From NCBI GenBank assembly GCA_040005235.1, contig JBDTZG010000028.1, positions 6,940-70,939 of the forward strand: DNA of 64,000 nucleotides. Reading direction: 5' to 3'. The position numbers were made by a program, and so were the translations under genes. This DNA is from Acidobacteriota bacterium (GTDB lineage: Bacteria > Acidobacteriota > Thermoanaerobaculia > Multivoradales > UBA5704). The notes beneath the pieces are model-generated. The model worked only from the letters and a program-made list of their open reading frames with translations, ran no database searches and was not told the origin of the DNA. Below, one piece after another: positions 34,280 through 59,955 of the stretch. Position 1 is the stretch's first letter. The number at the start of each line of letters is the position of its first letter.

Positions 34280-34290
34280 AGGCTCGACCC

Positions 34291-40343: not shown

Positions 40344-41416
40344 CGCAGTTTCAACGTCGAGATGGAAAGCAGCGCGAACAGGATCGAGAGAATCCAGAAG
40401 CGCACGATCACCTTGGGTTCGGCCCAGCCCGACAGCTCGAAATGGTGGTGGAGGGGCGCCATGCGGAACACTCTCTTTCCGCGCAGCTTGAACGAGGCGA
40501 CCTGGATGATCACCGACAGGGCTTCCATCACGAACACGCCGCCGACCACCACGAGTAGGATTTCCTGCTTCGCGAGCACGGCGACGCTGCCGATCGCCGC
40601 GCCGAGCGACAGCGAGCCGACATCGCCCATGAACACTTCGGCCGGATGGGAGTTGAACCAGAGGAATCCCAGGCCCGCGCCCACCAGGGCGGAGCAGAAC
40701 ACCGCCACCTCGCCGACACCGGGAACGTAGGAGATCTGGAGGTAGTTGGCGATCACCTTGTTGCCACCGACGTAGGTGAACAGGGCGTAGGTTCCCGCGG
40801 CGACCGTGGTGGCGCCGATCGCCAGGCCGTCGAGCCCGTCGGTCAGGTTGACCGCGTTCGAGGCGCCGACCAGCACCAGGACCACGAACGGCACGTAGGC
40901 GAGGCCGAGCGGAATCACCAGGCGCTTGAAGAACGGAAACGCCAGGGTCGAATCGAATTCCGGAATCGCCCACAAGGCGAGCCCCAGCCCGAGGCCGGCC
41001 ACGACCTGCAACAAAAACTTGGTGCGCGCGGTGAGCCCTAGGTTCTGCCGCCGCTTCACCTTCAGATAGTCGTCGAGGAAGCCGACGGCGCCGAAGGCGA
41101 CGGTCACCCCCATCGCGAGCCAGAGGTATCGGTTGCGTAGGTTGCCCCAAAGGAGCGTCGGCACGATCAGGGCGAACAGGATCAGCAGTCCCCCCATCGT
41201 GGGGGTGCCGGCTTTCACCTGATGCGCCTGCGGTCCCAGCTCGCGGATGTTCTGGCCGACCGACAGGCGCCGGAGAGTGCGGATGAACCAGGGACCGAGC
41301 AGCCAGGAGAGCAGCAGCGCGGTGACGATCGCCGCCGCCGCCCGGAACGTGATGTAGCGGAAGACGTTGAAGACCGCGAACCGCTCGTGGAGCGGATAGA
41401 GCAGCTCGTAGAGCAT
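40340..41416 (-). CDS. mraY: phospho-N-acetylmuramoyl-pentapeptide transferase
   Basis: Typical MraY sequence ([25 protein letters not shown]...[13 protein letters not shown]...HHHFE). Confidence 0.97.
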
Positions 41417-42927: not shown

Positions 42928-44437
42928 CGAATCTCTCCGTGAGCGCGCGCTCGATCTCTTCGAAATCCGAAAACGGCAGCTTGCGGTCGCCGATCGTCTG
43001 GTCGCGTTCGTGCCCTTTGCCGGCGATCAGCACGGCCGACCCCTCTTCGGCGGCGGCGATCGCGGTGCGGATCGCATCGCGCCGGTCGGGGATCAATAGA
43101 TAGTTGTTGCGCCCGGTCGAGCGCAGACCCTCTTCCACCGCGGCGAGGATCGCGTGCGGATCTTCGCTGCGCGGGTTGTCGGAGGTGGCGATCGCGAGAT
43201 CTGCCAGCTCGCCCGCGACCCGGCCCATCACCGGCCGCTTGCCCGGATCGCGGTCGCCGCCGCAACCGAAGACGACGATCGTCCGGCCCGGCGCGATCTC
43301 GCGCACCGAGGCGATCGCGGCGGAAAGGGCCGCGTCGGTATGGGCGTAATCGACGATCGCGGCAAACGGCTGGCCGCATTCGACCGGCTCCAGGCGGCCG
43401 GGAACCGGCTGCTGCGCCGCGGCGGCTGCGACCACGGCCGAGACCGGAATTGCCGCCGTCTGGAGCGCCAGGGCGCCCGCGATCGCGGCGGTCAGATTCG
43501 ACAGGTTGTAGCGGCCGAGCAGCGCCGAGGCGATCTCGAATTCATCCAGATTTCCGGAGTCGGAATCGGCCACGACGATCGTCGCGGAGAGCCCATGGCG
43601 ATCGAGCTTCGCGTCGCGCGCCGAGACGGTGGCCGCGTTCCCTTCGACGCTGTAGGTCCAGGCCCCGGGCAGCTCGGCTGCCAGCCGTCGGCCGTACTCG
43701 TCGTCGACGTTGATCACCGCCCGGCCGTTCGGCTTCAAGCGCGTAAACAGCCGGCGCTTCGCGGCGAAGTAGCTCTCCATGTCGCCGTGCAGATCGAGAT
43801 GGTCGCGCGACAGGTTGGTGAACAGAGCGAGATCGAATTCCGCGCCGTCGGCCCGGCCCTGTTCGAGGGCGTGCGACGACACCTCCATGGCCACCGCCGC
43901 CGCCCCGGCGTCGCGCATGGCGCGCAGGGTGCGGAACAGGTCGCTCGCCTCAGGCGTCGTCCGCTCGCCGGGAAAGCTCTTCCCGCGCAGGCGATAGCCG
44001 AGCGTGCCGATGAATCCCGCCGGCTGCCCGGCCTTTTCGAAGATCGCAGCGAGCAGCGTCGCGACGGTCGATTTGCCGTTCGTGCCGGTCACCCCGGCGA
44101 GGATCAGCTCGCGATCCGGATGGCCGTAGATCCGCGCCGCGAGCGGCGGGAGCAGCGCGCGGGGATTCGCCGCCGAAAGCCAGGGGATTTCGGTCCCGAG
44201 CCCCGCCGGACGGTTCCCCGGTGCGACCACCGCGACGGCGCCCCGCTCGACCGCCTGGGGCGCGAACTCCCGGCCGTCGAACCGTCCGCCGGACCAGGCG
44301 ACGAACAGGTCGCCGGGCCGGACCGCGCGCGAGTCGTGGCAAACGCCGGAAATCGTCGGGTCGCCCGGCAGACCGCCGTCGGCTTCCACCGCTAGCCTGA
44401 GCCCGTCGATCAGCTCCGAGAGGGGGAGCGCGCTCAT
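42908..44437 (-). CDS. murE: UDP-N-acetylmuramoyl-L-alanyl-D-glutamate--2,6-diaminopimelate ligase
   Basis: VTGTNGKSTV motif. Start trimmed to ATG 44437, an ATGA overlap with the ftsI stop. The 1134-aa track ORF is read-through. Confidence 0.93.
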   Translation of the reverse strand: MSALPLSELIDGLRLAVEADGGLPGDPTISGVCHDSRAVRPGDLFVAWSGGRFDGREFAPQAVERGAVAVVAPGNRPAGLGTEIPWLSAANPRALLPPLAARIYGHPDRELILAGVTGTNGKSTVATLLAAIFEKAGQPAGFIGTLGYRLRGKSFPGERTTPEASDLFRTLRAMRDAGAAAVAMEVSSHALEQGRADGAEFDLALFTNLSRDHLDLHGDMESYFAAKRRLFTRLKPNGRAVINVDDEYGRRLAAELPGAWTYSVEGNAATVSARDAKLDRHGLSATIVVADSDSGNLDEFEIASALLGRYNLSNLTAAIAGALALQTAAIPVSAVVAAAAAQQPVPGRLEPVECGQPFAAIVDYAHTDAALSAAIASVREIAPGRTIVVFGCGGDRDPGKRPVMGRVAGELADLAIATSDNPRSEDPHAILAAVEEGLRSTGRNNYLLIPDRRDAIRTAIAAAEEGSAVLIAGKGHERDQTIGDRKLPFSDFEEIERALTERFGARLGC

Positions 44438-46353
44438 CCTTCGCCTCCCGGAGTTACGGGCGTTGCCGCCGGGGTAATGCTGAGGGTGCTCGCCGGGATC
44501 GGCCGAACCGCCGGCCGGCCGGTCGGCTGGGTCGCCGGCTGGGCGGCCGGTGTGGCGCGGGCCTTGGGAGCCGCCGGAGGTCCCGGAGCGGCCCCCTCCG
44601 GTGCCGGAGTCAACCCCGCCGTCACCATTTTCGGCATCGCCTGGCCGTCCGGCCAGTCGGGCCGGGCCCGCTCCGGGCGGACGCCGAGGTAGAGCAGGAC
44701 CTGGCGGGCGATCGCGCCGAACACCGGCGCCGCGACCTGTCCGCCGTGATATTCGAAACCCTGCGGCGCGTCGATCGCGACGACGCCGACGATCTGCGGC
44801 CGGTCGCCCGGCGCGAAACCGACGAAGCTCGGCACGTAGTGGTTCCGATCGTAGCCGCCGTCGAGTGGAATCTGCGCCGTCCCGGTCTTGCCGGCCACGT
44901 TGTACCCCTCGACCGCGGCGGACTTGCCCGTTCCTCCGGTCACCACCCCTTCGAGCAGGCGCGTCACTTCGGCGGCGGTGGCCACCGACATGGCGCGCCC
45001 GACCGGCAGCGCCGCGGCATGAAGCGGCTCGATCTGCCCGGCGGCGCCGGTCGCGGCGACCATGTAAGGCCGAAGGCGGACGCCGCCATTGGCGACGGTC
45101 GCCGCCGCCACCGCGAGCTGGAGAGGCGTCACCGACACCCCCTGGCCGAACGAGATGTACGCCTTGCTGAGCGGAAAGCGGCGCCACTCGGACAGGGGGT
45201 GGAGGATGCCCGAGGCCTCGCCGGGCAGGTCGATGCCGCTCTTCCGGCCGAAGCCGAGCGCGCTCGCCATCCCGTACAGCCGCTCGTCGCCGAGCAGCAG
45301 GGCGGTCTTGATCATGCCGACGTTGCTCGATTTGGCGATCGCCTCGGCGAAGGTCAGGAGCCCGAACGGCTTGTGGTCGCGAATCCGGATGCCGGCCAGG
45401 GTGATGCCACCCATGCCGCAGTCGAAGGTGTCGCTCGCCTTGACCACGCCGCTTTCGAGCGCCGCCGAGGCGGTGACGAGCTTGAACGTCGAGCCCGGCT
45501 CGTAGGAATCGGTAACCGCCCGATTGCGCGCCCGGTTGCGCAACAGGTCTTTCGACGTCTCGCCGTACTGGTTCGGATCGAAGCTCGGGTAGCTCGCGAG
45601 AGCCAAAATGCCGCCGGTTCGCGGGTCGAGAAACACCGCCATCCCTTTGCGCGCGCCCCGCTCGTCGACCGTCTGGGCCAGCTCGCGCTCGACGATGTGC
45701 TGGATCGTCGCGTCGAGCGTCAGGTGCAGATCGCGCCCCGGCTCCGGATCGGTGAACGACAGCTCGGGGTCCATCACGGTCCCCTTGCGCGCATCGCGAA
45801 GGACGGTTCGGCGGCCCGGTTTGCCGGCGACGGTCGAGTCGTAGAGCTTCTCCAGCCCTTCCAGGCCATGGTTCTCGGTGCCGACGAACCCGAGCACTTG
45901 GGCGGCCAGCTCGCGCATCGGGTAGTAGCGCTTGCTCTCGGTGACGAACCGTAGTCCTTTGACCTGGAGCGCGCGAATCTGATCGGCGAACTGTGGATCG
46001 AGCTTCCTTTTGATCCAAACGAAGTCGCGGCTCTTGTCGCCCAACTGCTTGGCGAGCTTCTCCGGCTCTTTGTCGACGAGCTTCGAAAGCTGGCGCGCCA
46101 CCGCGGCCGGGTCGGCGATCTCCGAGGGGATGGCGTAGACCGAATCGACCTCGATCGAGACCGCGAGCTCCCTTCCCCGCGCGTCGTAGATCGTGCCGCG
46201 CGGGGCATCGAGCTCGACCACCCGCTGCTGCTGATTGCCGGCGCGCTGGGTGTAGTGCGCGTGGCGGATGACCTGGAGGTAGTAGAGCCGTCCGGTGATC
46301 AGCGCCACCCAAGCGAGGCCGAGGCCGGCGACCACCCGGAGCCGCGTCTTCAC
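44434..46353 (-). CDS. ftsI: class B penicillin-binding protein (division transpeptidase, FtsI/PBP3-like)
   Basis: N-terminal TM anchor. Motifs STFK, SSN and KTGT. Pro/Ala-rich C-terminal tail. Confidence 0.92.
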   Translation of the reverse strand: MKTRLRVVAGLGLAWVALITGRLYYLQVIRHAHYTQRAGNQQQRVVELDAPRGTIYDARGRELAVSIEVDSVYAIPSEIADPAAVARQLSKLVDKEPEKLAKQLGDKSRDFVWIKRKLDPQFADQIRALQVKGLRFVTESKRYYPMRELAAQVLGFVGTENHGLEGLEKLYDSTVAGKPGRRTVLRDARKGTVMDPELSFTDPEPGRDLHLTLDATIQHIVERELAQTVDERGARKGMAVFLDPRTGGILALASYPSFDPNQYGETSKDLLRNRARNRAVTDSYEPGSTFKLVTASAALESGVVKASDTFDCGMGGITLAGIRIRDHKPFGLLTFAEAIAKSSNVGMIKTALLLGDERLYGMASALGFGRKSGIDLPGEASGILHPLSEWRRFPLSKAYISFGQGVSVTPLQLAVAAATVANGGVRLRPYMVAATGAAGQIEPLHAAALPVGRAMSVATAAEVTRLLEGVVTGGTGKSAAVEGYNVAGKTGTAQIPLDGGYDRNHYVPSFVGFAPGDRPQIVGVVAIDAPQGFEYHGGQVAAPVFGAIARQVLLYLGVRPERARPDWPDGQAMPKMVTAGLTPAPEGAAPGPPAAPKARATPAAQPATQPTGRPAVRPIPASTLSITPAATPVTPGGEG

Positions 46354-46694
46354 GGCAGCTCCTCCCAGAAGATCACGCGATTGAGCGCGGGCGGTTCGAG
46401 CCCCAGCTCGTGCCGGGCGCGCTCCTCGATCCGCTGCGGGCTCGCCAGGTAGGCCGCTTCGAGCGACAGTTGCCGTTCGGTGCGGGTCATCTCCCGAAGT
46501 TGGGTTTCGAGTTTGTCGATCTTGTAGCCGGTCGACAGCACTTCGAGATGGATCCAGGTGTACGACAGCAAGCCGACGCCCAGAGCGCCGACCGCCGCCA
46601 GCACCAGACCCAGCTCGCGGAAGCGCTTGCGATCGCGCTCCCGAACCAGGTAGGCGTTGGCGACCGGCCGCGTGAAGGCGTAGGCATTCCTCAC
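46350..46694 (-). CDS. ftsL: cell division protein FtsL
   Basis: 114 aa, a single TM plus a coiled-coil-like region, positioned between rsmH and ftsI. GTGA overlaps at both ends. Confidence 0.8.
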   Translation of the reverse strand: MRNAYAFTRPVANAYLVRERDRKRFRELGLVLAAVGALGVGLLSYTWIHLEVLSTGYKIDKLETQLREMTRTERQLSLEAAYLASPQRIEERARHELGLEPPALNRVIFWEELP

Positions 46695-47635
46695 CGCGTC
46701 TCCAGTCTCCGACCCGCGCGCAGGCGCGCCGAGCGCGACCGGGGGTTGATCGCGATTTCTTCCTCGGTCGGGCGCACCGACCGCTTTGTCAGCAGCTCGA
46801 TCGCCTGGCTCTCCGAGCGGGGACGGCCGGTGACGAGATCGATCTCGCCGCGGTGCAGATCGCGCAGCGTGTTCTTGACGATCCGATCCTCCAGGCTGTG
46901 GTACGAGATGATCACCAGACGCCCTTCGGCGTCGAGCTGGTCGACTGCTTGGTCGAGAAAGCTAAGGAGTCCGGAAAGCTCCTCGTTGACCTCGATGCGC
47001 AGCGCCTGGAACACGCGGGTCGCCGGATCGACCCGCCCTTCGCGATTACGGTGTCCGGCCTCATGCCCCTTGCCGCGGTCGATCGCGCGGCGCAGCTCCG
47101 AGGTGGTCTCGATCGGTTTCTCGCGGCGCGCCGCGACGATCGCGCGCGCGATCCGCCGCGATTGCCGCTCCTCGCCGTACTCCCAGAAGATCTTGGCCAA
47201 TTCTTCCTCCGAGCTTTCGTTCACGATGTCCGCCGCGGTAAGGCCTTCGTGGCCCATCCGCATGTCGAGCGGTCCGCCGAACCGGAAACTGAAGCCCCGT
47301 TCCGGCGAATCGATTTGCAACGACGAAACGCCGAGGTCGGCGAGAATCCCCGCCACCCGGCCGATCCCTTCCGCCCCGAGCAGCTCACCCAGGTCGGCAA
47401 AATTCCCCTCGACCAGCCGCACCCGGGGGCCGAAACGCGCCAACCGTTCGCGCGCGAGCCCGAGCGCTTGGCGGTCGCGATCGATCCCCACCAGCTCGAC
47501 CCCGGGGCCGGCCTCGAGGATCGCTTCCGCGTGACCGCCGAGCCCAAGCGTCGCGTCGACGAACACGCCGCCCCGCTCTGGCGCGAGAAGCTCGACGACC
47601 TCGCGGAGCAGGACGGGGACGTGACGTGCGGCCAC
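46691..47635 (-). CDS. rsmH: 16S rRNA (cytosine1402-N4)-methyltransferase
   Basis: GTG 47635 gives VAARHVPVLLREVVELL...DATLGLGGHAEAIL, the typical RsmH/MraW N-terminus. The longer track ORF is rejected. Confidence 0.92.
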   Translation of the reverse strand: MAARHVPVLLREVVELLAPERGGVFVDATLGLGGHAEAILEAGPGVELVGIDRDRQALGLARERLARFGPRVRLVEGNFADLGELLGAEGIGRVAGILADLGVSSLQIDSPERGFSFRFGGPLDMRMGHEGLTAADIVNESSEEELAKIFWEYGEERQSRRIARAIVAARREKPIETTSELRRAIDRGKGHEAGHRNREGRVDPATRVFQALRIEVNEELSGLLSFLDQAVDQLDAEGRLVIISYHSLEDRIVKNTLRDLHRGEIDLVTGRPRSESQAIELLTKRSVRPTEEEIAINPRSRSARLRAGRRLETR

Positions 47636-47670
47636 GGGCTCTCGATCTCGGCGCGCGGAAGTCGCACGGA

Positions 47671-48114
47671 CTAGATTCCGCCGCGCTCCGCCAGGGCGCG
47701 GGAGTCGTCCTCGGTGAACGGCTGCTCGGCCATCCGCGCGACCAGGCGCTCGTGGTTCCAGACGATCAGGTGGTCGATCTGCGCCATCACCACCACGTCG
47801 CCGCTCATCCCGGCGCTCTCCCGCAGGATCTGCGGAATCACCAACCGCCCCTGGTCGTCCAACCGCACCTGCTGGCCGTAGTAGCTCGCGCGCTCCAGGA
47901 ACCGCTGCTTCGAGGGATCGGCCGAGGGCATCGCTTGGAGCTTCCCCTCGATCTCTTCCCAGACCGGCAGCGGGTAGAGCCGTGCGCAATCGCCGTGGAC
48001 CGAGGTCACGAACAGCTCGCGCCCATACCTCTCCTCAACGAACCGGCGGAAATCCGTCGGCACCTTGAGGCGGCCCTTCTCGTCGATCTTCGCTGGTGAG
48101 CTACCCCGGAACAT
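47671..48114 (-). CDS. mraZ: division/cell wall cluster transcriptional regulator MraZ
   Basis: MFRGSSPAKIDEKGRLKVP and a second DxxxR-type repeat DDQGRLVIP. First gene of the dcw cluster. Confidence 0.95.
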   Translation of the reverse strand: MFRGSSPAKIDEKGRLKVPTDFRRFVEERYGRELFVTSVHGDCARLYPLPVWEEIEGKLQAMPSADPSKQRFLERASYYGQQVRLDDQGRLVIPQILRESAGMSGDVVVMAQIDHLIVWNHERLVARMAEQPFTEDDSRALAERGGI

Positions 48115-48190: not shown

Positions 48191-48427
48191 TAGGGGCCAC
48201 CAGGACCCCGCGGTGGGCTCTGAAACCTCTTTCCGCAGGGTCGGCGCGGGCGGCAGAGTCGGCACGGGTGTTGAGTACCCGGTCCGGGCACGAGGCGTAC
48301 CTCAGGGGCTGTCGGCGCAAAAATTTGCGAAATTTGCCGCCCAGGGGTCCCGCTGTCTCGCATTGACGCGCCGAAGCACCGTAACATTGCAGAGACCACA
48401 CAATTGATTCGACCGAGGAGACCCCCC

Positions 48428-49888
48428 GTGTCGCAAAATCCTGTGCCGCTGCTTGCCGTGGTGTTGCGGAATCTCCGCGAGCGAGCCGGCTGGACCCAAG
48501 TCCGGCTCGAACGCGAGGCTCGCCTCAGCAAGGGATCGCTCTGCCGGCTGGAGAAGGGCAGCCAGACGGTCGATCGTTTCCTGCTCAATCGGCTGGCGAA
48601 GGTGATGAGAATCGCCGAGGGTGACGTGGAACAGGCGCTCGCAGTGCTGGAGCAGCTCCCGGCGGAGACCGGCGCCGGTTCGTCCGCGGACCTGCCGGTT
48701 CGCGACCGGCAGACGATCGAAACCGTCAGCGCGCGCTTTTCCCGCATGGTTCGCGAGAAGGCCCAGAACCGAATCGGGGGGAAGGTCCGCGCCCGGCGCT
48801 GGCGTCTCGACCGCGCGGCGGCCGCCGTGGCGTGGCAGCGGCTGCGCAAAATGCCCTCCGAGGATCGCCGGCTGATCGTTAAAGCGGTTGAGGCCTTTCA
48901 CACCTGGGCGGTGGTGGAACGGCTTTGCGAGGAGAGCGTAAGGGCGGCGGCCAGCGATATGGAGGAGGCCCGTAGGCTGGCGCAGCTTGCCCGGCAGGCC
49001 TCGACGGCCGCGAGCGGTGCCGAGCGAAGATATAAGTCGCTCGAAAATTACGCGGCGGCCTTCGAAGCGAACGCCTGGTGCGCTGCCGGCGAATTTCGGA
49101 AAGCCGAGCAGATTTTTGCCGAGGTCGATGCGCTCCATGGAGAAGGGCTGGACATCGCGGCAGTACCGGTCGATTGGGCCAGGCCACTGATCTTTCGAGC
49201 GGTGCTTATGATTTATCGGGCGAACCTCGATCCGGCATTGGAATGGCTGAACGAGGCGCTTTCGCTCACTCGCTCGCCGACCGTCAAGACTTGGGCGTTA
49301 ATCTGGCGAGCCGCTGTGCTCAAGCGGAAGCTCCAATTTCCCGCGGCGCTTGAGGAGCTGGAAAAGGCTCGGCCGTACGCCGAGCTTGCAGGCGATGCCC
49401 GGCTTCGATGGGCCATCGCCTTCAATGAAGCGGGTTATTTATGCGAAGCCGGCCATTTGGCGGAGGCTGCCGCCCGCCTTCCAGCCCTGAAGCTGGCAGC
49501 GTTGGAGCTCGGAGGAGCTCTGGATCGCCTGCGGCTCCGCTGGTTGACCGCGAGAGTGGCTGCTGCTTCAGGCCTGTTCCAGGAAGCCGCGACGAACCTC
49601 TCCGAGGTTTGGAATGCCTTTGCCGACCGGAACCTCTGGCTCGACGCGGCGATCGCGGTTCTCGAGCTGGCCAGCATCAACCTGGAGATGGGTCTGTCTG
49701 CCCAGGTCAAGAAGCTCGCCACGGCATCTGCTCACGTCTTCGCGGCGCAGACCCTGCCCGACCACCTTCTCGCGGCGGTTCGACTATTCTGGCAGGCCGC
49801 CCTTCAGGAAGCGGCCACTTCACAAATGGCGCGACAGCTGGTTGGGGACCTTCGCCGCGCCATGGTGGCAAACGCCGAAGCCTCCTGA
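48428..49888 (+). CDS. long XRE-HTH regulator with helical-repeat (TPR-like) C-terminal domain (R1)
   Basis: HTH LRNLRERAGWTQVRLEREARLSKGSLCRLEKG. Family signature FHTWAVVERLCEESV. About 300 aa of helical repeats. GTG 48428 has RBS GAGGAG; the track start is TTG 48404. Confidence 0.75.
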   Translation: MSQNPVPLLAVVLRNLRERAGWTQVRLEREARLSKGSLCRLEKGSQTVDRFLLNRLAKVMRIAEGDVEQALAVLEQLPAETGAGSSADLPVRDRQTIETVSARFSRMVREKAQNRIGGKVRARRWRLDRAAAAVAWQRLRKMPSEDRRLIVKAVEAFHTWAVVERLCEESVRAAASDMEEARRLAQLARQASTAASGAERRYKSLENYAAAFEANAWCAAGEFRKAEQIFAEVDALHGEGLDIAAVPVDWARPLIFRAVLMIYRANLDPALEWLNEALSLTRSPTVKTWALIWRAAVLKRKLQFPAALEELEKARPYAELAGDARLRWAIAFNEAGYLCEAGHLAEAAARLPALKLAALELGGALDRLRLRWLTARVAAASGLFQEAATNLSEVWNAFADRNLWLDAAIAVLELASINLEMGLSAQVKKLATASAHVFAAQTLPDHLLAAVRLFWQAALQEAATSQMARQLVGDLRRAMVANAEAS

Positions 49889-50195: not shown

Positions 50196-50395
50196 GACCG
50201 ACTCCTATTCCGAGGGGACCGGCGCCGCGGCCTCCATGGCCGAACGGGCACCCTGCGAGTTCTTCCAGGCGCGCCTGGGCGAAGCTTGGACGCAAAATTT
50301 TGTGCTGCCAGGCGTACGGTGGGGTCTATCTTAGGAGCAAGCCCCGCCCTGCACGCTCTTTCGATACGATTCCCTCCAGAAACTCGGGAGGTGAC

Positions 50396-51220
50396 ATGAA
50401 CGACGCCTTGGATCGCCGCGCGGCAGGCTTGGTGATGCAGTTGTTTCGCTTCATGGCCGGCCGCCACCAGCACGACCTGAGCGAACGGACCGGGATCGAC
50501 ATAAAGCGGATTTCGCGTTACGAGCAGGGAAAAGTTCTGCCTCTTCGGCCGACGCTCGAACGACTCGCTGCGGGCGTCGGCGTCTCCGCGACCCGGCTCG
50601 ATCAGCTTCTCGCGTTGATTCGCACCGTGTGCGCCGAGGGCGAGGCGGCGACCGCCCAAAAGGAGCACGCCACAGCAGACCCCGACGAGTCCGATTGGCC
50701 GGACGATCTCGCCGAGCTGGCGGCGGAGATCGCCGAAGACCTACAGCCCGAGATTTACCAAGCCCTGAAGGAATTGAACGCCGAGCTGAACGCGCCGCCT
50801 CCGCCACTCGCCCCGGAAGCGGCGCGCGCCCAGGCTCGGGAGCTATGGGGAAGGTTCGAACCCTTGCCGGATCGCGTTCGCCGCCTGGTGATCGAACATG
50901 GCAAGGAGTACCAAACCTGGGCCTTTTGCGAACGGCTCTGCGAAGCAAGCCTCGACGCCGGATCGCGCGCGCCGGAGGACGGTCAGGCCTTGGCCGACCT
51001 GGCGCTCTCGGTCGCCGAGGCCGCCCAAGGGTCCGACGTGCTGCGCCAGCGCCTGACCGCCTTCGCCCTCGCCTGCGCCGCCCACGCGGATGTCCTCGCC
51101 GGGGACTCGGAAGAGGCCGCCGAGAAGCTGGGCCGGGCCAAGGCGCTCTGGACGGCCGGGGACGGCACCGACGATCTCGACCTCGGCCAGATCGCCGATC
51201 TGGTGCCCGCCGACTCGTAA
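50396..51220 (+). CDS. short XRE-HTH regulator paralog (R2)
   Basis: RBS GGGAGG lies before ATG 50396. HTH HQHDLSERTGIDIKRISRYEQG. Signature YQTWAFCERLCEASL. It lacks the long C-terminal repeat domain. Confidence 0.7.
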   Translation: MNDALDRRAAGLVMQLFRFMAGRHQHDLSERTGIDIKRISRYEQGKVLPLRPTLERLAAGVGVSATRLDQLLALIRTVCAEGEAATAQKEHATADPDESDWPDDLAELAAEIAEDLQPEIYQALKELNAELNAPPPPLAPEAARAQARELWGRFEPLPDRVRRLVIEHGKEYQTWAFCERLCEASLDAGSRAPEDGQALADLALSVAEAAQGSDVLRQRLTAFALACAAHADVLAGDSEEAAEKLGRAKALWTAGDGTDDLDLGQIADLVPADS

Positions 51221-52694: not shown

Positions 52695-53810
52695 CTAGGG
52701 CTGCAGGCCGCCGTTCCACGAAGTGTCCTTGAGCAGATCGGCCCAATTCACGTCGGCGCTCAGCACATTGAATTCGTCGCTGCCGTCCGAGAAGACGTTG
52801 AGGTGTGCCGCCCGCCGAAAGACCTCCTCGCCTTGAATTTCGAAGCCGGGCCGTAGCGGCGGCAAGATGTAGAGGCCCATCCACGGACTACCGGTTGGGT
52901 TACAGCCCGTCTGGCCGGAAGCGGTGCAGAAGGGGAGCGCCGTGATTTCGCCCGTCGTCAAGCGTCCCTGGGTATCGGTGTGCAGGCGCAGCAGGAAGGG
53001 GATTTCCAGGTCACTGTAGACACACACTCCGTCGTCATCGCAGGAAAGGGCAGAGTCATAGGCGTCAATCCGGTAAGTCAGCGGCTCCTCCGCCCGGTAG
53101 AGAGCGGTCTTGTAGGAAATAAAGGCGCAGAACGGATTGGGAATGGGTTCCGCCAGGCAGCCTGTCGGCCGAACCGTCCGCGCGAGGATCGAGTAGACCT
53201 TGAGGTCAAAGTCGGTCACTTCGGTATGGCAGGGAGAGAGTAGGTCGTCGACGGTCAAACCGCGTCCCGCGGTGTCCGCGTGGTCCGCCTGCGCGTCCTG
53301 GAGAGTGGTGATCCGAATCGAATTCTTCGGCTGAAAAGGGTCTGGCGGCTCCCGGGACAGGATGAGATCCACGAGCATCGAGAACCGGGTCGTCCCCTCG
53401 AGATTCGAAGACGCATCCCGCCGAACCAAGGTGGCCTGGGGCCGGCGATCCCTTCGGGGGTTCAAGAAGTCCTCGTCCTCGCGAAGGATCAGGTCGAACG
53501 CCAGCTGTTTCTCCTGTCGCTCGCGGTCGCCTTGAACCGTGGTGTGTCGCAACTGGCTGGTGCTGGCCAATCCTCTGTAGGTGCCGCCATTGGCGCTCGA
53601 CCGCCAGAGGAGGAGGCTCGACTCCCCGTAGGAAACCCCCATGCGGTGCAGCAACCTCCCCATTTGCCGCTCTTCGCAGGCGACCTGCTCGGACGTGAGG
53701 GGGCGGCCGAAGGGCTGGGCCACAGCATTGCGTACCGCACATGCGCCGAAGACCAGGGCCACGGCCCAAGCCGGCACCCGCCACCCTACGGCTGCAGGCC
53801 GCCGTTCCAC
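52695..53810 (-). CDS. secreted Cys-containing protein of unknown function (P1), tandem paralog of P2
   Basis: Collinear with P2 over the full length (QPFG.PLTSEQVACEERQMGRLLHRMGVSYGE ... NWADLLKDTSWNGGLQP). GTG start at 53810; an alternative is GTG 53777. Confidence 0.7.
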   Translation of the reverse strand: MERRPAAVGWRVPAWAVALVFGACAVRNAVAQPFGRPLTSEQVACEERQMGRLLHRMGVSYGESSLLLWRSSANGGTYRGLASTSQLRHTTVQGDRERQEKQLAFDLILREDEDFLNPRRDRRPQATLVRRDASSNLEGTTRFSMLVDLILSREPPDPFQPKNSIRITTLQDAQADHADTAGRGLTVDDLLSPCHTEVTDFDLKVYSILARTVRPTGCLAEPIPNPFCAFISYKTALYRAEEPLTYRIDAYDSALSCDDDGVCVYSDLEIPFLLRLHTDTQGRLTTGEITALPFCTASGQTGCNPTGSPWMGLYILPPLRPGFEIQGEEVFRRAAHLNVFSDGSDEFNVLSADVNWADLLKDTSWNGGLQP

Positions 53811-54889
53811 GAGGTGTCCTTGAGCAGGTCCGCCCAGTTGACGTCGGCACGTAGAATGTTCAAGTCAGGAAAGGCAACCGAGAAAAGGTTCAGGTGGGCC
53901 GCACGCCGAAAGACTTCCTCTCCCTGAACCTCGATGCCGGGTCTCAGGGGAGGTAAGACGTAAAGGCCCATCCAAGGACTGTCCTCCGGGCTGCATCCGG
54001 TTTGGCCCGACGCTGTGCAAAACGGCAGCAGCGAGACCTCCCCGGATGCCAACCGGCCTTGGGCGTCGGCTTGGATGCGAAACAGCAGTGAATTCTGCTC
54101 GTCGCTGTAAACGCACACGCCGTCTTCGTCGCAGGACAACGAGGAGAGATATACGTCGGCCCGATAGGTCAGCGGCTCCTCCGCGCGGTAGAACGCGGTT
54201 TTAAAGGAAATGAATCCGCAGACCGGGTTGGGAATGGGTTCCGCCAGGCAGCCCGTCGGCCGCACCGTCCGGGCGAGGATCGAGTAGACCTTTAGGTCGA
54301 AATCGGTCACCTCAGTATGGCAGGTATTCAAAAGGTCGTCGACGGTCAGACCGCGTCCGGCGGTGTCCGCGTGGTCCTCCGGCGCTTCCTGGAGGGTGGT
54401 GATCCGGATCGAATTCTTTGGGTGGAAAGGGTCGGGCGGCTCCGGGGACAGGATGAGATCTACGAGCATCGAGAACCGGGTCGTTCCCATCGGGTCGAGG
54501 TTCGACGCCGCGTCCCGCCGGACCAGCGTCGCCTGCGGGCGGCGTTCCCGCCGGGGGTTCAAGAAGTCTTCATCGGCGCGGAGAATCAGGTCAAACGCCA
54601 GCTGTTTCTCATCGCGCATCCGGATGTCTACGGTCGTCGTAGGATCGAAATAAAGGTGGTCCGTACTGGCCAAGCCTCTGTAGCTGCCGCCGTTGGCCGC
54701 CGATCGCCAAAGGTAGAGGCCAGCCTCGCCATATGAGACCCCCATACGATGAAGCAATCGCCCCATCTGGCGCTCCTCGCAGGCGACCTGCTCGGACGTG
54801 AGGGGGCTGCCGAAGGGCTGGGCCGCCATAATTCCCGGGGCGATGATTACCAGGAAGAGAATCGCGAACAACGCGCTTTTGGGTTTCAT
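53786..54889 (-). CDS. secreted Cys-containing protein of unknown function (P2)
   Basis: ATG 54889 with signal peptide MKPKSALFAILFLVIIAPGIMAAQ. The track ORF's N-terminal extension is rejected. Confidence 0.75.
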   Translation of the reverse strand: MKPKSALFAILFLVIIAPGIMAAQPFGSPLTSEQVACEERQMGRLLHRMGVSYGEAGLYLWRSAANGGSYRGLASTDHLYFDPTTTVDIRMRDEKQLAFDLILRADEDFLNPRRERRPQATLVRRDAASNLDPMGTTRFSMLVDLILSPEPPDPFHPKNSIRITTLQEAPEDHADTAGRGLTVDDLLNTCHTEVTDFDLKVYSILARTVRPTGCLAEPIPNPVCGFISFKTAFYRAEEPLTYRADVYLSSLSCDEDGVCVYSDEQNSLLFRIQADAQGRLASGEVSLLPFCTASGQTGCSPEDSPWMGLYVLPPLRPGIEVQGEEVFRRAAHLNLFSVAFPDLNILRADVNWADLLKDTSWNGGLQP

Positions 54890-55098
54890 AGCTTCCCCGC
54901 TGAACCTGTCTTCTGTTGGACCTGGAGAACGATGTCGAAGGAATAGAACGGCGAAACGATCTCGCAACTTCCCCCGTTGCAGGTTTTGTGGATGGGATCC
55001 CAATTGATGGTCTGGACTGCCGTCATGGTTCCCGTTGCCGGCGTGACCCACTGGACCTCGAACCGATCGGCCGTCGGTCCGAGGTTCAAGAGCGTCAA
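54886..55098 (-). CDS. small protein X, translationally coupled to P2; the true N-terminus is probably further upstream
   Basis: ATGA overlap with the P2 start. The frame stays open and protein-like up to about 55320, but the first ATG/GTG/TTG in frame is TTG 55098. Confidence 0.5.
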   Translation of the reverse strand: MTLLNLGPTADRFEVQWVTPATGTMTAVQTINWDPIHKTCNGGSCEIVSPFYSFDIVLQVQQKTGSAGKL

Positions 55099-55321
55099 GC
55101 GGTCTTGGTATTTCTGCGCCAGCCAGATCCGCGCGTCGAAAGCGTTGCGCGGGAGAAATATCGGTTTGGCGCTCGGAGACGTGGACTCTTTGGGGCATCC
55201 GTTCGCAGTGAACTCCGCCTCGGGCGCGTTCGATGCCGTGCTGGCCGCGCAGCGGATCGTGCTGTGGTGTAGATAGAGCAGGAAAAGCCGGTTCGGCTCC
55301 GGTCTCCGACCTGGATCGGCA

Positions 55322-56821
55322 TCAATCGGTATCCGTCGGAGATTGAGGGCCTTGATGTAGGTCGGGTCTCGCAGCGCTATTGGGCAGCCCTCCAGACCAA
55401 GCTGACCGGGACGAGGTGAGGCGCCCGAGCGGCAGCGCGTTGACGAATTTCTTGAGTACGCCGAGTTGGCGCCGAATGGTCGCGGGGGTGTTCGGGTCGC
55501 CTCCGGAGAGATATCCGAAATGGTCGTAGGTGGCGCCCTGGTCGAACAGAAACTCCCAGGCTTCGGCGCGCGCCGGTTCGGCGAGCTTTTCTGTCAGGGC
55601 GCCGTTGGTATGGGCGCGGGTGCCGCTCTTGCCTCCGACATCTGGGTTGCCGATGAACTGACCGGCGCCTTTGGTCGTAAACGGCTGTACCGCCACCAAA
55701 TGCCCGCCGGCGGCCAAGCGCGGGTATTTCGCTTCCTGAAAGGTGACCTGGGCAATCATGTCGCGCTGCCACTTGGCGACCTCGAGGGGATCGACGGTCT
55801 GGGCCTCCGGCTCGTTGGCGATCTCCCAATAGACGGTGTCGAAGCACCAGAGTTCTTGGACCGTCCACTCGATCACTTTGGCCTGGGCCACGCGCATGCG
55901 CTCGTTCGTCAGGGCCTCCTGGGTGCCTCGCGTGTCGTGGGTCACGAAGTACTCGGGCTTTGAGAACTTCACCGTCTCGAACGTCCCGTCCGACTTCGGC
56001 ATCATCCCCTTGCCGCCCCAGGGACCCTGGGAGAAGAAATCTCCCTCGAACGGCGCGAAGATGGTCACTTCGACGATCATCTTCCTCGGGTCCTGGGCGT
56101 AGGCCACGACATCGCGCAAGCGTTGGAAATACCGCGTGTTCGGCTTGTCCAGGCGCCAGAACGGGTAGGCGTTGGCCGGGAAGTTGGCGCAGTCGGGGCT
56201 CGCCACGGCGCTCGGGCAATAGAGGAACGGGACGTTGTTCGGGTTTTTCTCTCCGGCCAGGGCGATCCAGAGGCGGAGCTTGTTCAGGCCCGCTTCGAAG
56301 GCGGCTTGGATCGTCGTGGGGTAGTTGGTCCAGTTGCATTTGTCGGAGGAGAGTTCGAGGTGGCAGCCGTTGTCAGCCGAGACGCCGACGAGGGTCTGGA
56401 TCGTGTTGCGGTACGAAAAGTAGCGCGAGGCGAAAGGCAGGGCGGCGGTCGTTTTGCCGATCTTGATCGGGGTGATCGTCTGCGTGATGTTGCCGCAACC
56501 GGTGGCGGAAATCGTGGGATCGGCCGGAACGTCGGGGTCGGTGCCCAGCAGCTCGGGCGGATAGAGATCCTCCGAGTCGAGCGAATTCGGGTCGCCGTCG
56601 TAGGGGAGCAAGTCGTCGCCGAGGGTCCACAGCTCGGCGGGCAAGCTGGGGTCGGTGGTCGAGCCACCGTCGCCGAAGACGGAAGAGAGGGGTGGCTCTT
56701 CTTCGGGTCCGGGTGGGGGTTGGGCGGGAAGGGGGGCACCGACCGAGAGGAACGAAAGAAAGATGAAGGCGAGGGTCGCACGGTGGCAGAGGGATAAGAG
56801 TAGCGAGCGAGTTCGGTCCAC
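55322..56821 (-). CDS. secreted glycoside hydrolase clan GH-A (GH5-like) candidate
   Basis: Signal peptide, a Pro/Asp-rich linker and a TIM-barrel-like domain with YWEIANEPE (the NEP acid/base motif). GTG start at 56821 with RBS AAAGGA. Confidence 0.5.
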   Translation of the reverse strand: MDRTRSLLLSLCHRATLAFIFLSFLSVGAPLPAQPPPGPEEEPPLSSVFGDGGSTTDPSLPAELWTLGDDLLPYDGDPNSLDSEDLYPPELLGTDPDVPADPTISATGCGNITQTITPIKIGKTTAALPFASRYFSYRNTIQTLVGVSADNGCHLELSSDKCNWTNYPTTIQAAFEAGLNKLRLWIALAGEKNPNNVPFLYCPSAVASPDCANFPANAYPFWRLDKPNTRYFQRLRDVVAYAQDPRKMIVEVTIFAPFEGDFFSQGPWGGKGMMPKSDGTFETVKFSKPEYFVTHDTRGTQEALTNERMRVAQAKVIEWTVQELWCFDTVYWEIANEPEAQTVDPLEVAKWQRDMIAQVTFQEAKYPRLAAGGHLVAVQPFTTKGAGQFIGNPDVGGKSGTRAHTNGALTEKLAEPARAEAWEFLFDQGATYDHFGYLSGGDPNTPATIRRQLGVLKKFVNALPLGRLTSSRSAWSGGLPNSAARPDLHQGPQSPTDTD

Positions 56822-57041
56822 GGCGCTGTCCTTTCAAGGTTTCCGCGTTACGCGGAAGACTGCTGGAACGGTAGCAGCGCCGACGATATTTTCGCAAACA
56901 ATTTCATCACATTCGGTATGGCTTTCAGATTTCTGCGGCTCTGGGGTGACCTGGGAACTGAGACGGATGGGAGCGGGCGTTTTCTGCCCGCGGGGCGATG
57001 ACGATGAACGGTGAGGACCCTAAGAGCCAAATGCTCCCAAT

Positions 57042-57060
57042 GAGGAAACCAGGTTTCCTC
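57042..57060. promoter_or_regulatory. perfect 19-bp palindrome in the divergent GH5-like/R3 intergenic region
   Basis: GAGGAAACC-A-GGTTTCCTC, about 100 bp upstream of the R3 start. Confidence 0.4.
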
Positions 57061-57158
57061 TCTGTGCGGCGGGCAGGCGTCCCAATTTATTTGTTGTCAC
57101 GAAAAGTGCCTCAGCGGCAACAAGATGTATTAAAGACACCAGACCCCGGAGAACCGCG

Positions 57159-58613
57159 ATGCCCAAGGTGGACCTGCCGCCGACGAATGCGGCGCTATTG
57201 ATTTTGCGCATCCTGTGTCGCCTGACACAGGATGAGTTCGGCGAGCTGACCGGCATGAAGAGCCGGATCGTCGAGATCGAGAATGGCCGGTATGTCCTTA
57301 AGCGCGCCGAGCTCGAAGATCTGGTGGAGGAGCTCAAGGTGTCGGCCTACGCGGTGCCGGTCGCCCTCGGCCTATCGGAGCTGGTGTTGCCGTCGACCGA
57401 CAAGACCCCCCACCCCTGGGAGGCGACGCCCGACGCGCGGTTTCAGGCCGAGCGCGCGACCCTCGAATCGTCCGCCATCGTGCGCCGTCTGTTCCTCGCC
57501 GAAGCGCGCGCGGAGCGCTACGCGGCGGACCGCGAGGAGGCCGAGCGCCTCTGGAAGCTGCTTGCGCCGCTCAATCGCGACCGGCGGCGGGTGATGGCCC
57601 GGATCGTCGATTTCTCGACCTGGGCGGTGGTCGAGCGCCTCTGCATCGAGAGCCTCAGGGGAGCGCCTCGGGATCCCGGGGCCGCCCGCTCGCTCGCCGA
57701 GCTGGCCGTTGAGGTGGCCCAGAGGATTCCGCCGCTGCCCAGGTTCAGCGATCGGGTGGAAGGGTACGCCCAGGCCCACTTGGGCAACGCCTTTCGAGTC
57801 GGGAACGACTTTGACGAGGCGGTTCGCGCTTTCGCGCTCGTCGCGAAACTTTGGATCGAGTTCCTGCCGGGCGAGGCCTGCCCGTTTGACGTGACGCTGA
57901 TCCCCGACCTAGAAGCTTCTCTGCGCCGCGATCAGCGTCAATTCTCCTTAGCGTTCGCTGGGCACGACCGGGCTCTTTCCTTCGCTGTCGAGGATGCGAT
58001 CCGCGGGCGCATCCTCCTCAATAAGGCAGTGACATTCGAGCATTCCGGCGATCCAGTTGGTGCGGTTGCAACTCTCAGCGCTGCTCAGCCTCTTATCGAC
58101 ACGAGCAACGAAACCCGGCTGGGTTGTGTCGCGCGTTTCAACTTGGCGGTCAACCTCCTCCATCTTGGAAACGCCTTAGATGCCGAGCCGCTGATCGCCG
58201 AGGTGCGGGCGCTTGCGATCGAACAGCGAAACGAGCTTGACCTGATCCGGGTCCTTTGGCTCTCCGGCCGCCTTGCCGCCGCGCAAGGAGATCGGGCGAA
58301 GGCGATGGTCTCGATCGATGACGCGGCCTGTCGCTTCGCCGAACAGGGCCTCGGATATGACGCCGCACTGGCGGTGCTCGACCTCGCGGGGCTGCTCTTG
58401 GAAGAAGGCAACCCGAGAGAGGCAGCCCGGAGGGTGGCCGAGGTGCAACCCACTTTCCACGTGCGAAACATTCACCGGGAGGAACTGGCGAGCCTGGTTC
58501 TGTTCCTCCAAGCCGTCGAAACCGAAGCGGCGACCGCCGCGCTGGCGCGCGCGGCGGCCGAGGCCTGGAGGTTGTTCGGCACGCCCGTTCCTTTCGGAAG
58601 TCTGGCCGACTGA
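57159..58613 (+). CDS. long XRE-HTH regulator with helical-repeat (TPR-like) C-terminal domain (R3)
   Basis: HTH LTQDEFGELTGMKSRIVEIENG. Signature FSTWAVVERLCIESL. The C-terminal repeats are collinear with R1. Confidence 0.75.
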   Translation: MPKVDLPPTNAALLILRILCRLTQDEFGELTGMKSRIVEIENGRYVLKRAELEDLVEELKVSAYAVPVALGLSELVLPSTDKTPHPWEATPDARFQAERATLESSAIVRRLFLAEARAERYAADREEAERLWKLLAPLNRDRRRVMARIVDFSTWAVVERLCIESLRGAPRDPGAARSLAELAVEVAQRIPPLPRFSDRVEGYAQAHLGNAFRVGNDFDEAVRAFALVAKLWIEFLPGEACPFDVTLIPDLEASLRRDQRQFSLAFAGHDRALSFAVEDAIRGRILLNKAVTFEHSGDPVGAVATLSAAQPLIDTSNETRLGCVARFNLAVNLLHLGNALDAEPLIAEVRALAIEQRNELDLIRVLWLSGRLAAAQGDRAKAMVSIDDAACRFAEQGLGYDAALAVLDLAGLLLEEGNPREAARRVAEVQPTFHVRNIHREELASLVLFLQAVETEAATAALARAAAEAWRLFGTPVPFGSLAD

Positions 58614-58619
58614 AATGAA

Positions 58620-58952
58620 CTACTGGCCGCAGCGACCCTCTGGGTCGACGACGCAACCCGCGTCGCGAAGGATCGGCGCCGGGGCACTCGACGAACCGCA
58701 GCGGCCGTAGGGATCGAGGCTGCAGCCCACGTCGCTGAGGATCGGCACCGGGGCGCTCGACGGGCCGCGGCCGCCGTGGGGGTCGAGGCTGCAGCCCTCC
58801 TCCTCCCAGAGGGCCGAAAGAAACGACCAGCCGCGGGCGAACAGGTCGGGGAGGGTGCGATCGAGCGGCAAGGCGCCGGCCGGGAAGGCACTGAGGAGGA
58901 AGAGGGCTAGCAGAGCGACGGCGAGGGCGAGGTGACGCTTCGGTTGGGGCAT
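58620..58952 (-). CDS. small secreted Cys-loop repeat peptide (pepB, 110 aa)
   Basis: Signal peptide MPQPKRHLALAVALLALFLLSAFPAGA, then FLSALW and three modules: GCSLDPHGGRGPSS, GCSLDPYGRCGSS and the terminal GCVVDPEGRCGQ. The modules are encoded by 69-bp tandem DNA repeats. Confidence 0.7.
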   Translation of the reverse strand: MPQPKRHLALAVALLALFLLSAFPAGALPLDRTLPDLFARGWSFLSALWEEEGCSLDPHGGRGPSSAPVPILSDVGCSLDPYGRCGSSSAPAPILRDAGCVVDPEGRCGQ

Positions 58953-59028
58953 GGCGGTGGGCTCCTGGTCAGCCCGGGAACCTCCGGCCGGGATGGCCGG
59001 CGGCCCGGTACGAAGGGGTTCAGAGGGT

Positions 59029-59046
59029 AACCCAAGTTTTTGGGTT
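59029..59046. promoter_or_regulatory. AT-rich inverted repeat between pepB and R4
   Basis: AACCCAA-GTTT-TTGGGTT, with perfect 7-bp arms, 22 bp upstream of the R4 ATG. Confidence 0.4.
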
Positions 59047-59067
59047 CATTTTTCTCTTGGAGGGATC

Positions 59068-59955
59068 ATGGAACGGAAATCCGGCAGAACGCGAGACGTT
59101 CGCTCAGGACTCAGTGCGGCACCCACCCCTGGCGCCGCCGCGAAGGGGGGAAGGGCCGCGGCCAAAGCGCGGGACGCCGAGTACTCGGCTCTGTTGGTCC
59201 GGTATATGGATGCGACGGTCGGCCCGCGGCACGACCAGTTCGCGGAGTTGGTCGAGATCAGCGCGGCGCGGGCGAGCCTCTACCGCTACGGCTACAAGGT
59301 GCCCCGGCCCGAGACGAAGGCCCGTTTCTCCGGCCGGGTCGGGCTGCCGATCGAATGGTTCGAGGCGATGACCGCCGACTCGTTGTTTCTCCGCGGCAAA
59401 AGCTCAAAGCCGGCGGGAAGTACTCCCGCAGCCCTGGCGGAAGACCTCTCCCGCCGGCTCGCGGGCCAGCTCGCCCCGCGGTTCGCGGCGTTGCGCAGCG
59501 TAGCCCCCGCCGCCCCTCCTCCTCCTCCTCCTTCGCTCGAACGGGCGGCGGCCGATCGAGCCGAGGCGGACCGGCATTGGACCGAAATCGAGCCGCTCAC
59601 CGCCGCCGAGCGCGCCCTCGCGGTGCCGGAGATCCCGAGGTTCCACTCCTGGGCGCTGGTCGAGCTGCTCTGCGGAAAAAGTGTAGAGGCCGCGCCCGTG
59701 TCGCCGGCCGAAGCGCTCGCCCTCGCCAAGCTGGCCATACGACTGGCCCGCCGGGTCCAAGCAAGCCAAGGATTTCGCGACCGCCTGATGGGCTACGCCC
59801 TCCTCCACTCGGCCGCCGCACTCAAGAGCCTGAACGACCTGCCGCGAGCCCGGGAAGCCCGCGCGCGCGGGCTACGGCTTTTCGCGGCGGGGCGGAAGGA
59901 GGATCCGGGGTTGCTGGATGAAGCGATCGCCGAGGGACTCGCGTCGTCGTCGTAG
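59068..59955 (+). CDS. short XRE-HTH regulator paralog (R4)
   Basis: RBS GGAGGG lies before ATG 59068. HTH-like HDQFAELVEISAARASLYRYG. Signature FHSWALVELLCGKSV. Confidence 0.65.
   Translation: MERKSGRTRDVRSGLSAAPTPGAAAKGGRAAAKARDAEYSALLVRYMDATVGPRHDQFAELVEISAARASLYRYGYKVPRPETKARFSGRVGLPIEWFEAMTADSLFLRGKSSKPAGSTPAALAEDLSRRLAGQLAPRFAALRSVAPAAPPPPPPSLERAAADRAEADRHWTEIEPLTAAERALAVPEIPRFHSWALVELLCGKSVEAAPVSPAEALALAKLAIRLARRVQASQGFRDRLMGYALLHSAAALKSLNDLPRAREARARGLRLFAAGRKEDPGLLDEAIAEGLASSS

Follow-up and report, generated by a model that had tools for sequence, protein, structure and literature searches.

Inversion in 'premature stop' intragenic invertons often gives two ORFs, and the repeat of the thiC inverton is 11 bp long (Chanin et al., PMC10028968). 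Among the glycoside hydrolases of clan GH-A, a C-terminal beta-sandwich is found in ManDH5 (9gpe), the GH140 apiosidases (8t9w, 5msy), 4n0r and 3kzs, and the structure modelled for P0003, a homolog of the gene considered here, is alike. In the window, by which we mean the whole 64-kb stretch of DNA that was analysed, the frame ending at position 54886 of the minus strand (gene X) is very probably, as judged by homology, the orphaned 3' end of a glycoside-hydrolase gene broken by an inversion, an extra base and a deletion.

Coding signal and gene architecture

Read directly from the sequence, the gene X frame closes with a TGA at 54888–54886 on the minus strand and overlaps the start of the P2 gene (53786–54889, ABJC13_14660) as ATGA (54889–54886); the coordinates and hand translation in the initial annotation were exact. 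The frame is open upstream as far as a TGA at 55596–55594, that is for 235 codons, and TTG 55098 is its first canonical start. The earlier suggestion that the stretch upstream of this TTG is protein-like was borne out by GC3, the codon model and third-position bias relative to the L003 ortholog. GC at codon positions 1, 2 and 3 of 55099–55320 was 0.59, 0.55 and 0.76 in the X frame, and a codon model trained on the long genes of the window favoured this frame between about 55405 and 54955, with a frame switch near 55420. Over 55290–55099, protein identity to L003 was 79%, with 8, 10 and 32 differences at codon positions 1, 2 and 3. An ortholog starting at the equivalent of 55098, or non-coding statistics upstream of it, had been named at the outset as evidence against coding; no such ortholog was found, which favours coding, and 55099–55300 scores as coding. 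The frame that ends at 54886 truly codes for protein far upstream of TTG 55098, and it is still protein-like because purifying selection acted until recently. Genuine same-strand coding stops at about 55290–55304, and 55305–55325, the last 16–20 nt of the interval initially annotated, is the inverted segment described below in backward reading.

Comparison with relatives indicated where this frame belongs. In P0002–P0006 the GH5-like ORF and gene X are joined in a single ORF of 672–686 aa; these homologs cover 91–99% of a fused GH+X query at roughly 50% identity, and a fused single ORF was observed in every intact homolog. The C-termini of the homologs are 54–79% identical to gene X overall; for the part at 54886–55290 identity was 52–62% with residues ~540–686 of P0002–P0006 and 72% with L003. 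The closest homolog, P0007, has 75% identity. All parts of the gene lie on a single strand at the orthologous loci L002–L006 (direct orientation in 5/5), the DNA of L006 carries an intact gene, and the 4-nt stop/start overlap with P2 recurs in L002 (7060–7063) and L003 (2204–2207). Gene X had been treated as an independent gene, but its frame belongs to the glycoside-hydrolase gene upstream, of which it is very probably the tail and not a separate gene. The ancestral gene would have encoded a barrel of clan GH-A (GH5/GH140-like) with a beta-sandwich C-terminal to it, its stop overlapping the P2 start as ATGA, and the product would have been secreted and ~694 aa long, as estimated from the 644-aa restored ORF plus 50 deleted codons.

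The family assignment draws mainly on structure. An AF2 model of P0003 gave a (beta/alpha)8 barrel (pLDDT 79, pTM 0.82), and its top Foldseek matches were GH5 ManDH5, GH140, 4n0r and 3kzs (E 1e-14 to 1e-10). Ten of 19 homologs matched PF00150 with E values no higher than 0.1 (best 6.6e-9), and 2 of 19 matched PF13204; P0003 itself scored 13.2 bits, below the PF00150 gathering cut-off of 23.5. Pfam gave no match at all for the window glycoside-hydrolase protein and no useful one for the X frame, P2 or P2', and no PDB sequence was matched by P2.

Lesions of the hydrolase gene

The 5' part of the gene (55637–56821, minus strand) lies within the annotated 499-aa ORF P0001 (ABJC13_14670) and comprises a signal peptide, a Pro/Asp-rich linker and the strands of the barrel as far as 'FIGNPDV'. 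This part is colinear with homolog residues ~26–385 at 49–57% identity and holds the Asn-Glu-Pro motif with the acid/base Glu after strand 4 (EIANEPE in the window protein; N326 and E327 are invariant). At the junction 55637|55636 on the same strand, DNA alignment with L002 and L003 revealed an in-frame deletion of 150 nt (50 codons), with 'tcg' microhomology at its ends. The lost stretch, 'DILNGHYT...FGFNETKITPF', corresponds to P0003 residues ~385–436, and six invariant residues went with it (H391, Y392, G414, N432, E433 and I436). The invariant E433 stands in the GFNETK motif of the homologs, a region deleted in the window copy, and from what is known of GH5 it is presumably the nucleophile Glu after strand 7. 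Two barrel strands fall in the deletion, with the His-Tyr pair and the Glu predicted as nucleophile among their residues. The frame disruption had been placed near 55280–55320, an incomplete account given this deletion further upstream.

Past the junction, the C-terminal part of the barrel and its last helix (GGKSGTRAH...LPLGRLTSSRS; 55404–55636, minus strand) continue in the hydrolase frame to the left breakpoint of the inversion. The 33 codons missing between this part and gene X, SPTWIGINRYPSEIEGLDVGRVSQRYWAALQTKL, which correspond to the linker between barrel and sandwich and to the first strand of the beta-sandwich, were found on the plus strand of 55305–55403 by tblastn, blastn and alignment of a model in which the segment was flipped. 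Five homologs matched the opposite strand at 55291–55416 in tblastn (59–67% identity, E 3e-10 to 6e-16), so that homolog residues ~26–520 were placed on the minus strand, ~514–556 on the plus strand and 555–686 on the minus strand again. L002 and L003 matched the segment in minus orientation in blastn, and the flipped model was colinear with both base by base, one 1-nt gap being left. Both breakpoints adjoin a 6-bp inverted repeat, read directly on the plus strand as CCGGTC (55299–55304) and GACCGG (55404–55409). The chance of a perfect inverted repeat of at least 6 bp abutting both breakpoints exactly is 0.0004, rising to 0.022 when ±3 nt of slack is allowed. We propose that the 99-bp internal segment was flipped through this repeat, the inversion arising spontaneously by template switching or illegitimate recombination.

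In backward reading the inverted segment gives ~27 junk codons and then the TGA at 55322–55324 (minus strand) that closes the annotated 499-aa ORF. On the alignments, this TGA is an artefact of antisense reading and the native stop lies elsewhere. The ATG at 55322–55320 overlaps it as TGATG, as initially described, and begins an Arg-rich 76-aa junk ORF in a third frame, which was confirmed.

An inversion preserves length and hence cannot bring the hydrolase frame into the X frame, so that one extra nucleotide is needed. A MAFFT gap locates it in accggagccgaaccgg (55289–55304, minus strand), where its exact place is ambiguous: it is either a G beside the junction or a C before CGG, and removal of 55291 or of 55301 gives an uninterrupted ORF either way. 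Lying just downstream of the inversion, it would shift the remaining gene to another frame, and it may or may not have arisen together with the inversion. Flipping 55305–55403 and dropping one base yielded a stop-free 644-aa ORF colinear with the homologs, 67% identical to P0009 and 55% to P0003. The 3' remnant in that other frame, gene X proper (54886–55290, minus strand; RLFLLYLHHST...DIVLQVQQKTGSAGKL plus stop), corresponds by homology and an all-beta AF2 model to the C-terminal beta-sandwich. An indel or frameshift had been suspected at 55280–55320; the frame is indeed disrupted there, but by a ~99-bp inversion with one extra nucleotide and not by a simple indel. Two simpler models were discarded. 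A +1 frameshift near 55420, drawn from codon statistics and the fused query, was rejected when tblastn showed the middle piece to be inverted, and a pure inversion was rejected on account of the remaining offset of one nucleotide.

With homologs that are continuous ORFs, lesions that break the frame and invariant residues lost, we infer from the sequence a non-functional pseudogene, with no product that would begin inside gene X. An intact allele may coexist with it in a mixed population. Outside the lesions the reading frames are stop-free, which fits a recent event and equally a switchable state. A chain of overlaps also runs across the break (TGATG 55324–55320, TTGA 55098–55095 and ATGA 54889–54886); through it, ribosomes might in principle still be passed on to P2, so that the arrangement may not be fully neutral.

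Artefact, inverton and independent gene as alternatives

An assembly or sequencing artefact, in which the real gene is intact and the inversion, indel or deletion stems from misassembly or chimeric reads, is improbable. The source is a metagenome-assembled genome, and orthologs in other such genomes carry single-base frameshifts, 3 of them in G/C homopolymer runs (L002, L004 and L005), so that errors or real slippage are frequent in this gene family. Against this, 5044 bp with all lesions included recur at 100% identity in the Logan contig SRR26386603_44995, both assemblies probably deriving from one run. Since this independent assembly is identical, the arrangement does not hinge on a single assembler, and the assembly error considered initially is unlikely in that form. 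A 6-bp repeat is, moreover, far below assembler k-mer sizes, making a graph-induced inversion implausible, and three separate lesions, two of them 99–150 bp long, are atypical of base-calling errors.

Disruption was also observed elsewhere in the family. Six of the 11 best matches (the window, L002, L003, L004, L005 and P0007) are disrupted independently, each at a different site, and three of the six disruptions lie in G/C runs. The downstream gene P2 stays intact and is even duplicated.

A reversible intragenic inverton, in which a site-specific invertase flips the 99-bp segment between the full-length enzyme and a truncated form, is very improbable. The inversion is wholly intragenic, its perfect inverted repeat is unlikely by chance, and by the structural model the protein would be split at a domain boundary, in the linker between barrel and beta-sandwich, all of which resembles the published cases where two ORFs often result (PMC10028968). 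However, the repeat has 6 bp against the 11 bp of the thiC inverton (PMC10028968), no inverted repeat of at least 8 bp flanks the segment at its breakpoints, where a recombinase site would be ~10 bp or longer, and CCGGTC/GACCGG is not conserved in L002 or L003 in the flipped-model alignment. Flipping the segment back leaves the +1 offset, with the frame still broken; the region of the predicted catalytic nucleophile is missing in any case, and all five orthologous loci are in direct orientation. A search of the ORFs across the 64-kb window found no serine or tyrosine recombinase, the sole transposase there being of the IS200-like Y1 type (23345–23797). An invertase encoded at another place in the genome could act in trans. 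Only the inverted state was seen in the two assemblies, and an exact-match scan of genome_contigs for the segment gave 0 matches. Two exact matches in metagenome_contigs (L007 and L008) were set aside as unrelated chance 20-mers, and no second allele was found. It is quite improbable, too, that the flip is a genuine, perhaps formerly reversible, inverton uncoupling the barrel from the C-terminal domain and, more broadly, that the hydrolase is a recurrently silenced contingency locus, a reading for which the six independent disruptions and the intact, duplicated P2 speak.

Least probable of all, and hardly to be credited, is that gene X is an independent small gene, started at CTG 55281, an ATT/ATA or TTG 55098, or a programmed frameshift product: its long open frame, good codon statistics and ATGA coupling to P2 speak for it, but intact homologs are single fused ORFs, the CTG 55281 put forward as a non-canonical start is an internal Leu of the conserved RLFLLYLHHST motif, 33 codons on the opposite strand are unbridgeable by any frameshift, break positions differ in every ortholog, products of 70, 67 or 46 aa had no exact counterpart in the protein collection, and the 70-aa product would, by the model, hold only the last few strands of the beta-sandwich. 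Free-standing gene X orthologs with their own start were not found among the homologs, and the fragment ORFs in L002 (179 aa, downstream of the frameshift) and L005 are frameshift by-products.

Relation to known systems

Read as the 3' remnant of a broken hydrolase gene, gene X is mainly an annotation matter: it is best joined to ABJC13_14670 and the whole labelled a pseudogene, in place of an entry for a gene whose start is unusual. In genomes of high GC content, coding potential that lacks a start codon is typical of a longer gene that has been disrupted, and the piece that is missing may be found on the other strand. The repeated disruption of this hydrolase family in Acidobacteriota metagenome-assembled genomes may merit a look at read level.

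The P0003-type homologs are like the GH-A enzymes in their NEP motif, the conserved Glu after strand 7 and the C-terminal all-beta domain. They differ in that sequence similarity is marginal (PDB profile E 2e-6, to 4n0r only), the family being uncharacterised, and the window copy differs further in being without the nucleophile region. The locus shares with the invertons of Chanin et al. (PMC10028968) a short intragenic inversion, a flanking inverted repeat, a premature stop and two apparent ORFs; unlike them it has a 6-bp non-conserved repeat, no invertase found within the 64-kb window and a re-inversion that does not restore the ORF.

The locus is very probably an ordinary pseudogene remnant. 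As in bacterial pseudogenes and gene remnants, the homologs are intact single ORFs, the lesions break the frame and invariant catalytic residues are lost; in the downstream fragment, codon bias and third-position substitutions still follow the frame it once had. A natural 99-bp intragenic inversion with a 6-bp inverted repeat is, in addition, a clean case of a small rearrangement presumably mediated by a short repeat, though of minor interest. The usual bacterial pseudogene results from a point frameshift, a nonsense mutation or an IS insertion, whereas here the gene carries a very small inversion bounded by a short inverted repeat, which is less common.

Reading frames downstream of the GH gene

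The minus-strand sequence of 54700–55500 agreed exactly with that read in the initial annotation, and the frame, overlaps and translation reported there stand as written. The stop of the X frame (TGA, 54888–54886) overlaps the ATG of the downstream gene P2 as ATGA, and upstream the frame runs open through 235 codons as far as a TGA at 55596–55594, its earliest ATG, GTG or TTG being the TTG at 55098. The annotated ORF of the upstream, GH5-like GH gene (minus strand, 55322–56821, 499 aa) stops at a TGA sharing bases with an ATG (TGATG), and from this ATG a third-frame, Arg-rich ORF of 76 aa is read. An open frame alone is little evidence here, since G+C of roughly 62% leaves all three minus-strand frames mostly open. 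Composition and a codon model trained on 16 long genes of the window do tell the frames apart: GC1/2/3 of the X frame over 55099–55320 was 0.59/0.55/0.76, and the model favoured the GH frame down to roughly 55450 and the X frame from roughly 55405 to 54955. The coding signal in the X frame is therefore real and starts upstream of the annotated GH stop.

When the GH protein was joined to the X-frame translation and used as a protein query, the search retrieved the window's own 499-aa protein, P0001, together with the homologs P0002–P0006 (672–686 aa, 91–99% query coverage, 48–53% identity). Their C-termini (...RLFLLYLHHST.RC...GCP...YDARIW...KYQ...L.LGP..G.F.VQWITPATG...TCNGGSC.I.SP.Y.FDI.L.VQQ) match gene X, a match that marks it, by homology, as the C-terminal part of the GH gene. 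Protein-like coding upstream of TTG 55098, as first proposed, thus agrees with GC3, codon model and homolog C-termini alike, while the proposal of a separate gene X falls, the homologs carrying it as their own C-terminus.

Stop/start overlaps are chained across the broken gene on the minus strand: at TGATG (55324–55320) the GH ORF gives way to the 76-aa junk ORF, at TTGA (55098–55095) the latter gives way to a 70-aa X ORF with its start at TTG 55098, and at ATGA (54889–54886) the X frame gives way to P2. The chain may be coincidence or a route for termination-reinitiation bringing ribosomes to P2.

Inversion, extra nucleotide and deletion

Searching five full-length homologs against the region with tblastn resulted in three pieces: homolog residues ~26–520 at 56750–55397 (minus strand), residues ~514–556 at 55291–55416 on the plus strand (59–67% identity, E 3e-10 to 6e-16), translated as RSPTWIGINRYPSEIEGLDVGRVSQRYWAALQTKLTG, and residues 555–686 at 55299–54910 (minus strand). 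A blastn comparison with L002 (GCA_031404815.1) and L003 (GCA_031390765.1), the closest two of the orthologous loci, reproduced the strand flip; in the orthologous loci L002–L006 every piece lies on a single strand. The inverted segment (55305–55403) is bounded by the arms CCGGTC (55299–55304) and GACCGG (55404–55409). The chance of a perfect inverted repeat this long abutting both breakpoints was 0.0004, or 0.022 with ±3 nt slack, and no flanking repeat longer than 6 bp was found there. An inversion preserves length and alone cannot account for the difference between the GH and X frames. L002 and L003 both lack the repeat; aligned with them, the flipped model has exactly one extra nucleotide, inside 'accggagccgaaccgg' (55304–55289). 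Flipping 55305–55403 and dropping one base (55291 or 55301) gave an uninterrupted 644-aa ORF, containing ...LPLGRLTSSRSPTWIGINRYPSEIEGLDVGRVSQRYWAALQTKLTGAERLFLLYLHHST..., that is colinear with the homologs P0009 (67% identity) and P0003 (55%). The indel or frameshift suggested initially was right as to the frame problem, caused by one extra nucleotide, and wrong as to a simple indel, an inversion being involved.

The window further shows an in-frame deletion of exactly 150 nt, or 50 codons, at 55637/55636, whose ends share 'tcg' microhomology. The residues lost (DILNGHYT...FGFNETKITPF) include six columns invariant in 19 homologs, namely H391, Y392, G414, N432, E433 and I436. Immediately past the P2 stop in L002, the 65-bp 'GGKGGTRAHTNGALTERLAEPA' coding stretch occurs a second time (8158–8223, 85% identity); this copy starts where the right end of the window's deletion falls, and behind it, at 8219–8853, come degenerate copies of the sequence preceding the GH gene (4745–4949). 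Such an arrangement is suggestive of tandem duplication and deletion in the past, possibly at a recombination-prone site.

All three lesions lie within 54778–59821, where the window has 100% identity to a Logan contig independently assembled from run SRR26386603, and a repeat of just 6 bp is too short to mislead a k-mer assembler. An intact allele may exist as a population minority beside the assembled broken one.

Besides the window, 5 of the 11 best homolog matches are broken, each at a different position: by 1-nt deletions in homopolymer runs (C5/G5/G6) in L002 (6302–6323), L004 (~2170–2190) and L005 (~4420–4430), by a 1-nt insertion in L003 (~940–960), and by loss of frame after GGHLVA at the C-terminus of the homolog P0007. 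Adjoining genes called on the same contigs have ordinary full-length domain sets. The breaks could reflect recurrent pseudogenisation, slippage or sequencing error.

Predicted fold and genomic neighbourhood

The window GH protein gave no Pfam match; of 19 intact homologs, 10 matched PF00150 (GH5) at E up to 0.1 (best 6.6e-9) and 2 matched PF13204 (apiosidase-like). A PDB profile search returned 4n0r (E 2e-6) and weak GH5 matches around the NEP motif. The AlphaFold model of P0003 (pLDDT 79, pTM 0.82) resembles clan GH-A structures (GH5 mannanase ManDH5, GH140 apiosidases, 4n0r and 3kzs; E 1e-14 to 1e-10) and runs from a barrel through a long helix (489–509) and coil linker into an all-beta domain from ~residue 541. 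By GH5 analogy, we take EIANEPE to be the site of the acid/base residue, HY to be the strand-6 pair and the Glu of GFNETK to be the predicted nucleophile. Strands 6 and 7, the predicted nucleophile included, would then be what the deletion takes out, the inverted piece would be the linker and first beta-sandwich strand, and gene X the remainder of the sandwich.

P2 (53786–54889) and P2' (52695–53810), both on the minus strand, are tandem paralogs of ~370 aa, 80% identical, with signal-peptide-like N-termini and neither a significant Pfam match nor a relative in the PDB. L002, L003 and L005 each have just one P2 after the GH gene, and the ATGA overlap of the GH stop with P2 is kept in L002 and L003. 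Three XRE-type HTH regulators surround the cluster on the plus strand (48404–49888, 50300–51220 and 57159–58613), TPR matches being confined to the last (484 aa). Since in both L002 and L005 the GH gene has a similar HTH protein (~480–490 aa; TPR matches in L005 only) as its neighbour, regulator, GH gene and P2 look like a conserved module. Pfam matches also delineate a dcw (cell division and cell wall) cluster at 33035–48114 (minus strand; MraZ, FtsL/DivIC-like protein, PBP transpeptidase, Mur ligases, MraY, FtsW, FtsQ and FtsA), and the window is therefore ordinary chromosomal DNA. Scanning the window ORFs for transposase- or recombinase-type proteins turned up a single one, an IS200-like Y1 transposase (PF01797, E 9e-23) on the minus strand at 23345–23797, 31 kb away from the inverted segment.

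Origin of the disrupted locus

A recently inactivated gene is the best-supported explanation, as the frames are still without stops, codon bias is kept and differences from L003 lean to the third codon position (8/10/32 over 55290–55099; 24/25/60 over the whole X region). The inversion would most likely have arisen spontaneously via the 6-bp inverted repeat, and the extra base may be a product of the same imprecise event. No plausible X products were found in the protein collection, and between P2 (locus tag ABJC13_14660) and the GH gene (ABJC13_14670) tag 14665 is left for the interval, consistent with the depositor's pipeline having perhaps marked it as a pseudogene.

The most interesting rival is a reversible intragenic inverton, as in Chanin et al. 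(PMC10028968). The repeat is, however, of insufficient length and not conserved, re-inversion would not restore the frame, no serine or tyrosine recombinase turned up among the window ORFs scanned, and the catalytic deletion would make any switch pointless. With the codons in between lying on the opposite strand, both the non-canonical start initially proposed and a programmed frameshift are excluded. The locus is best read as an ordinary gene remnant, of which the small inversion is the slightly unusual part.
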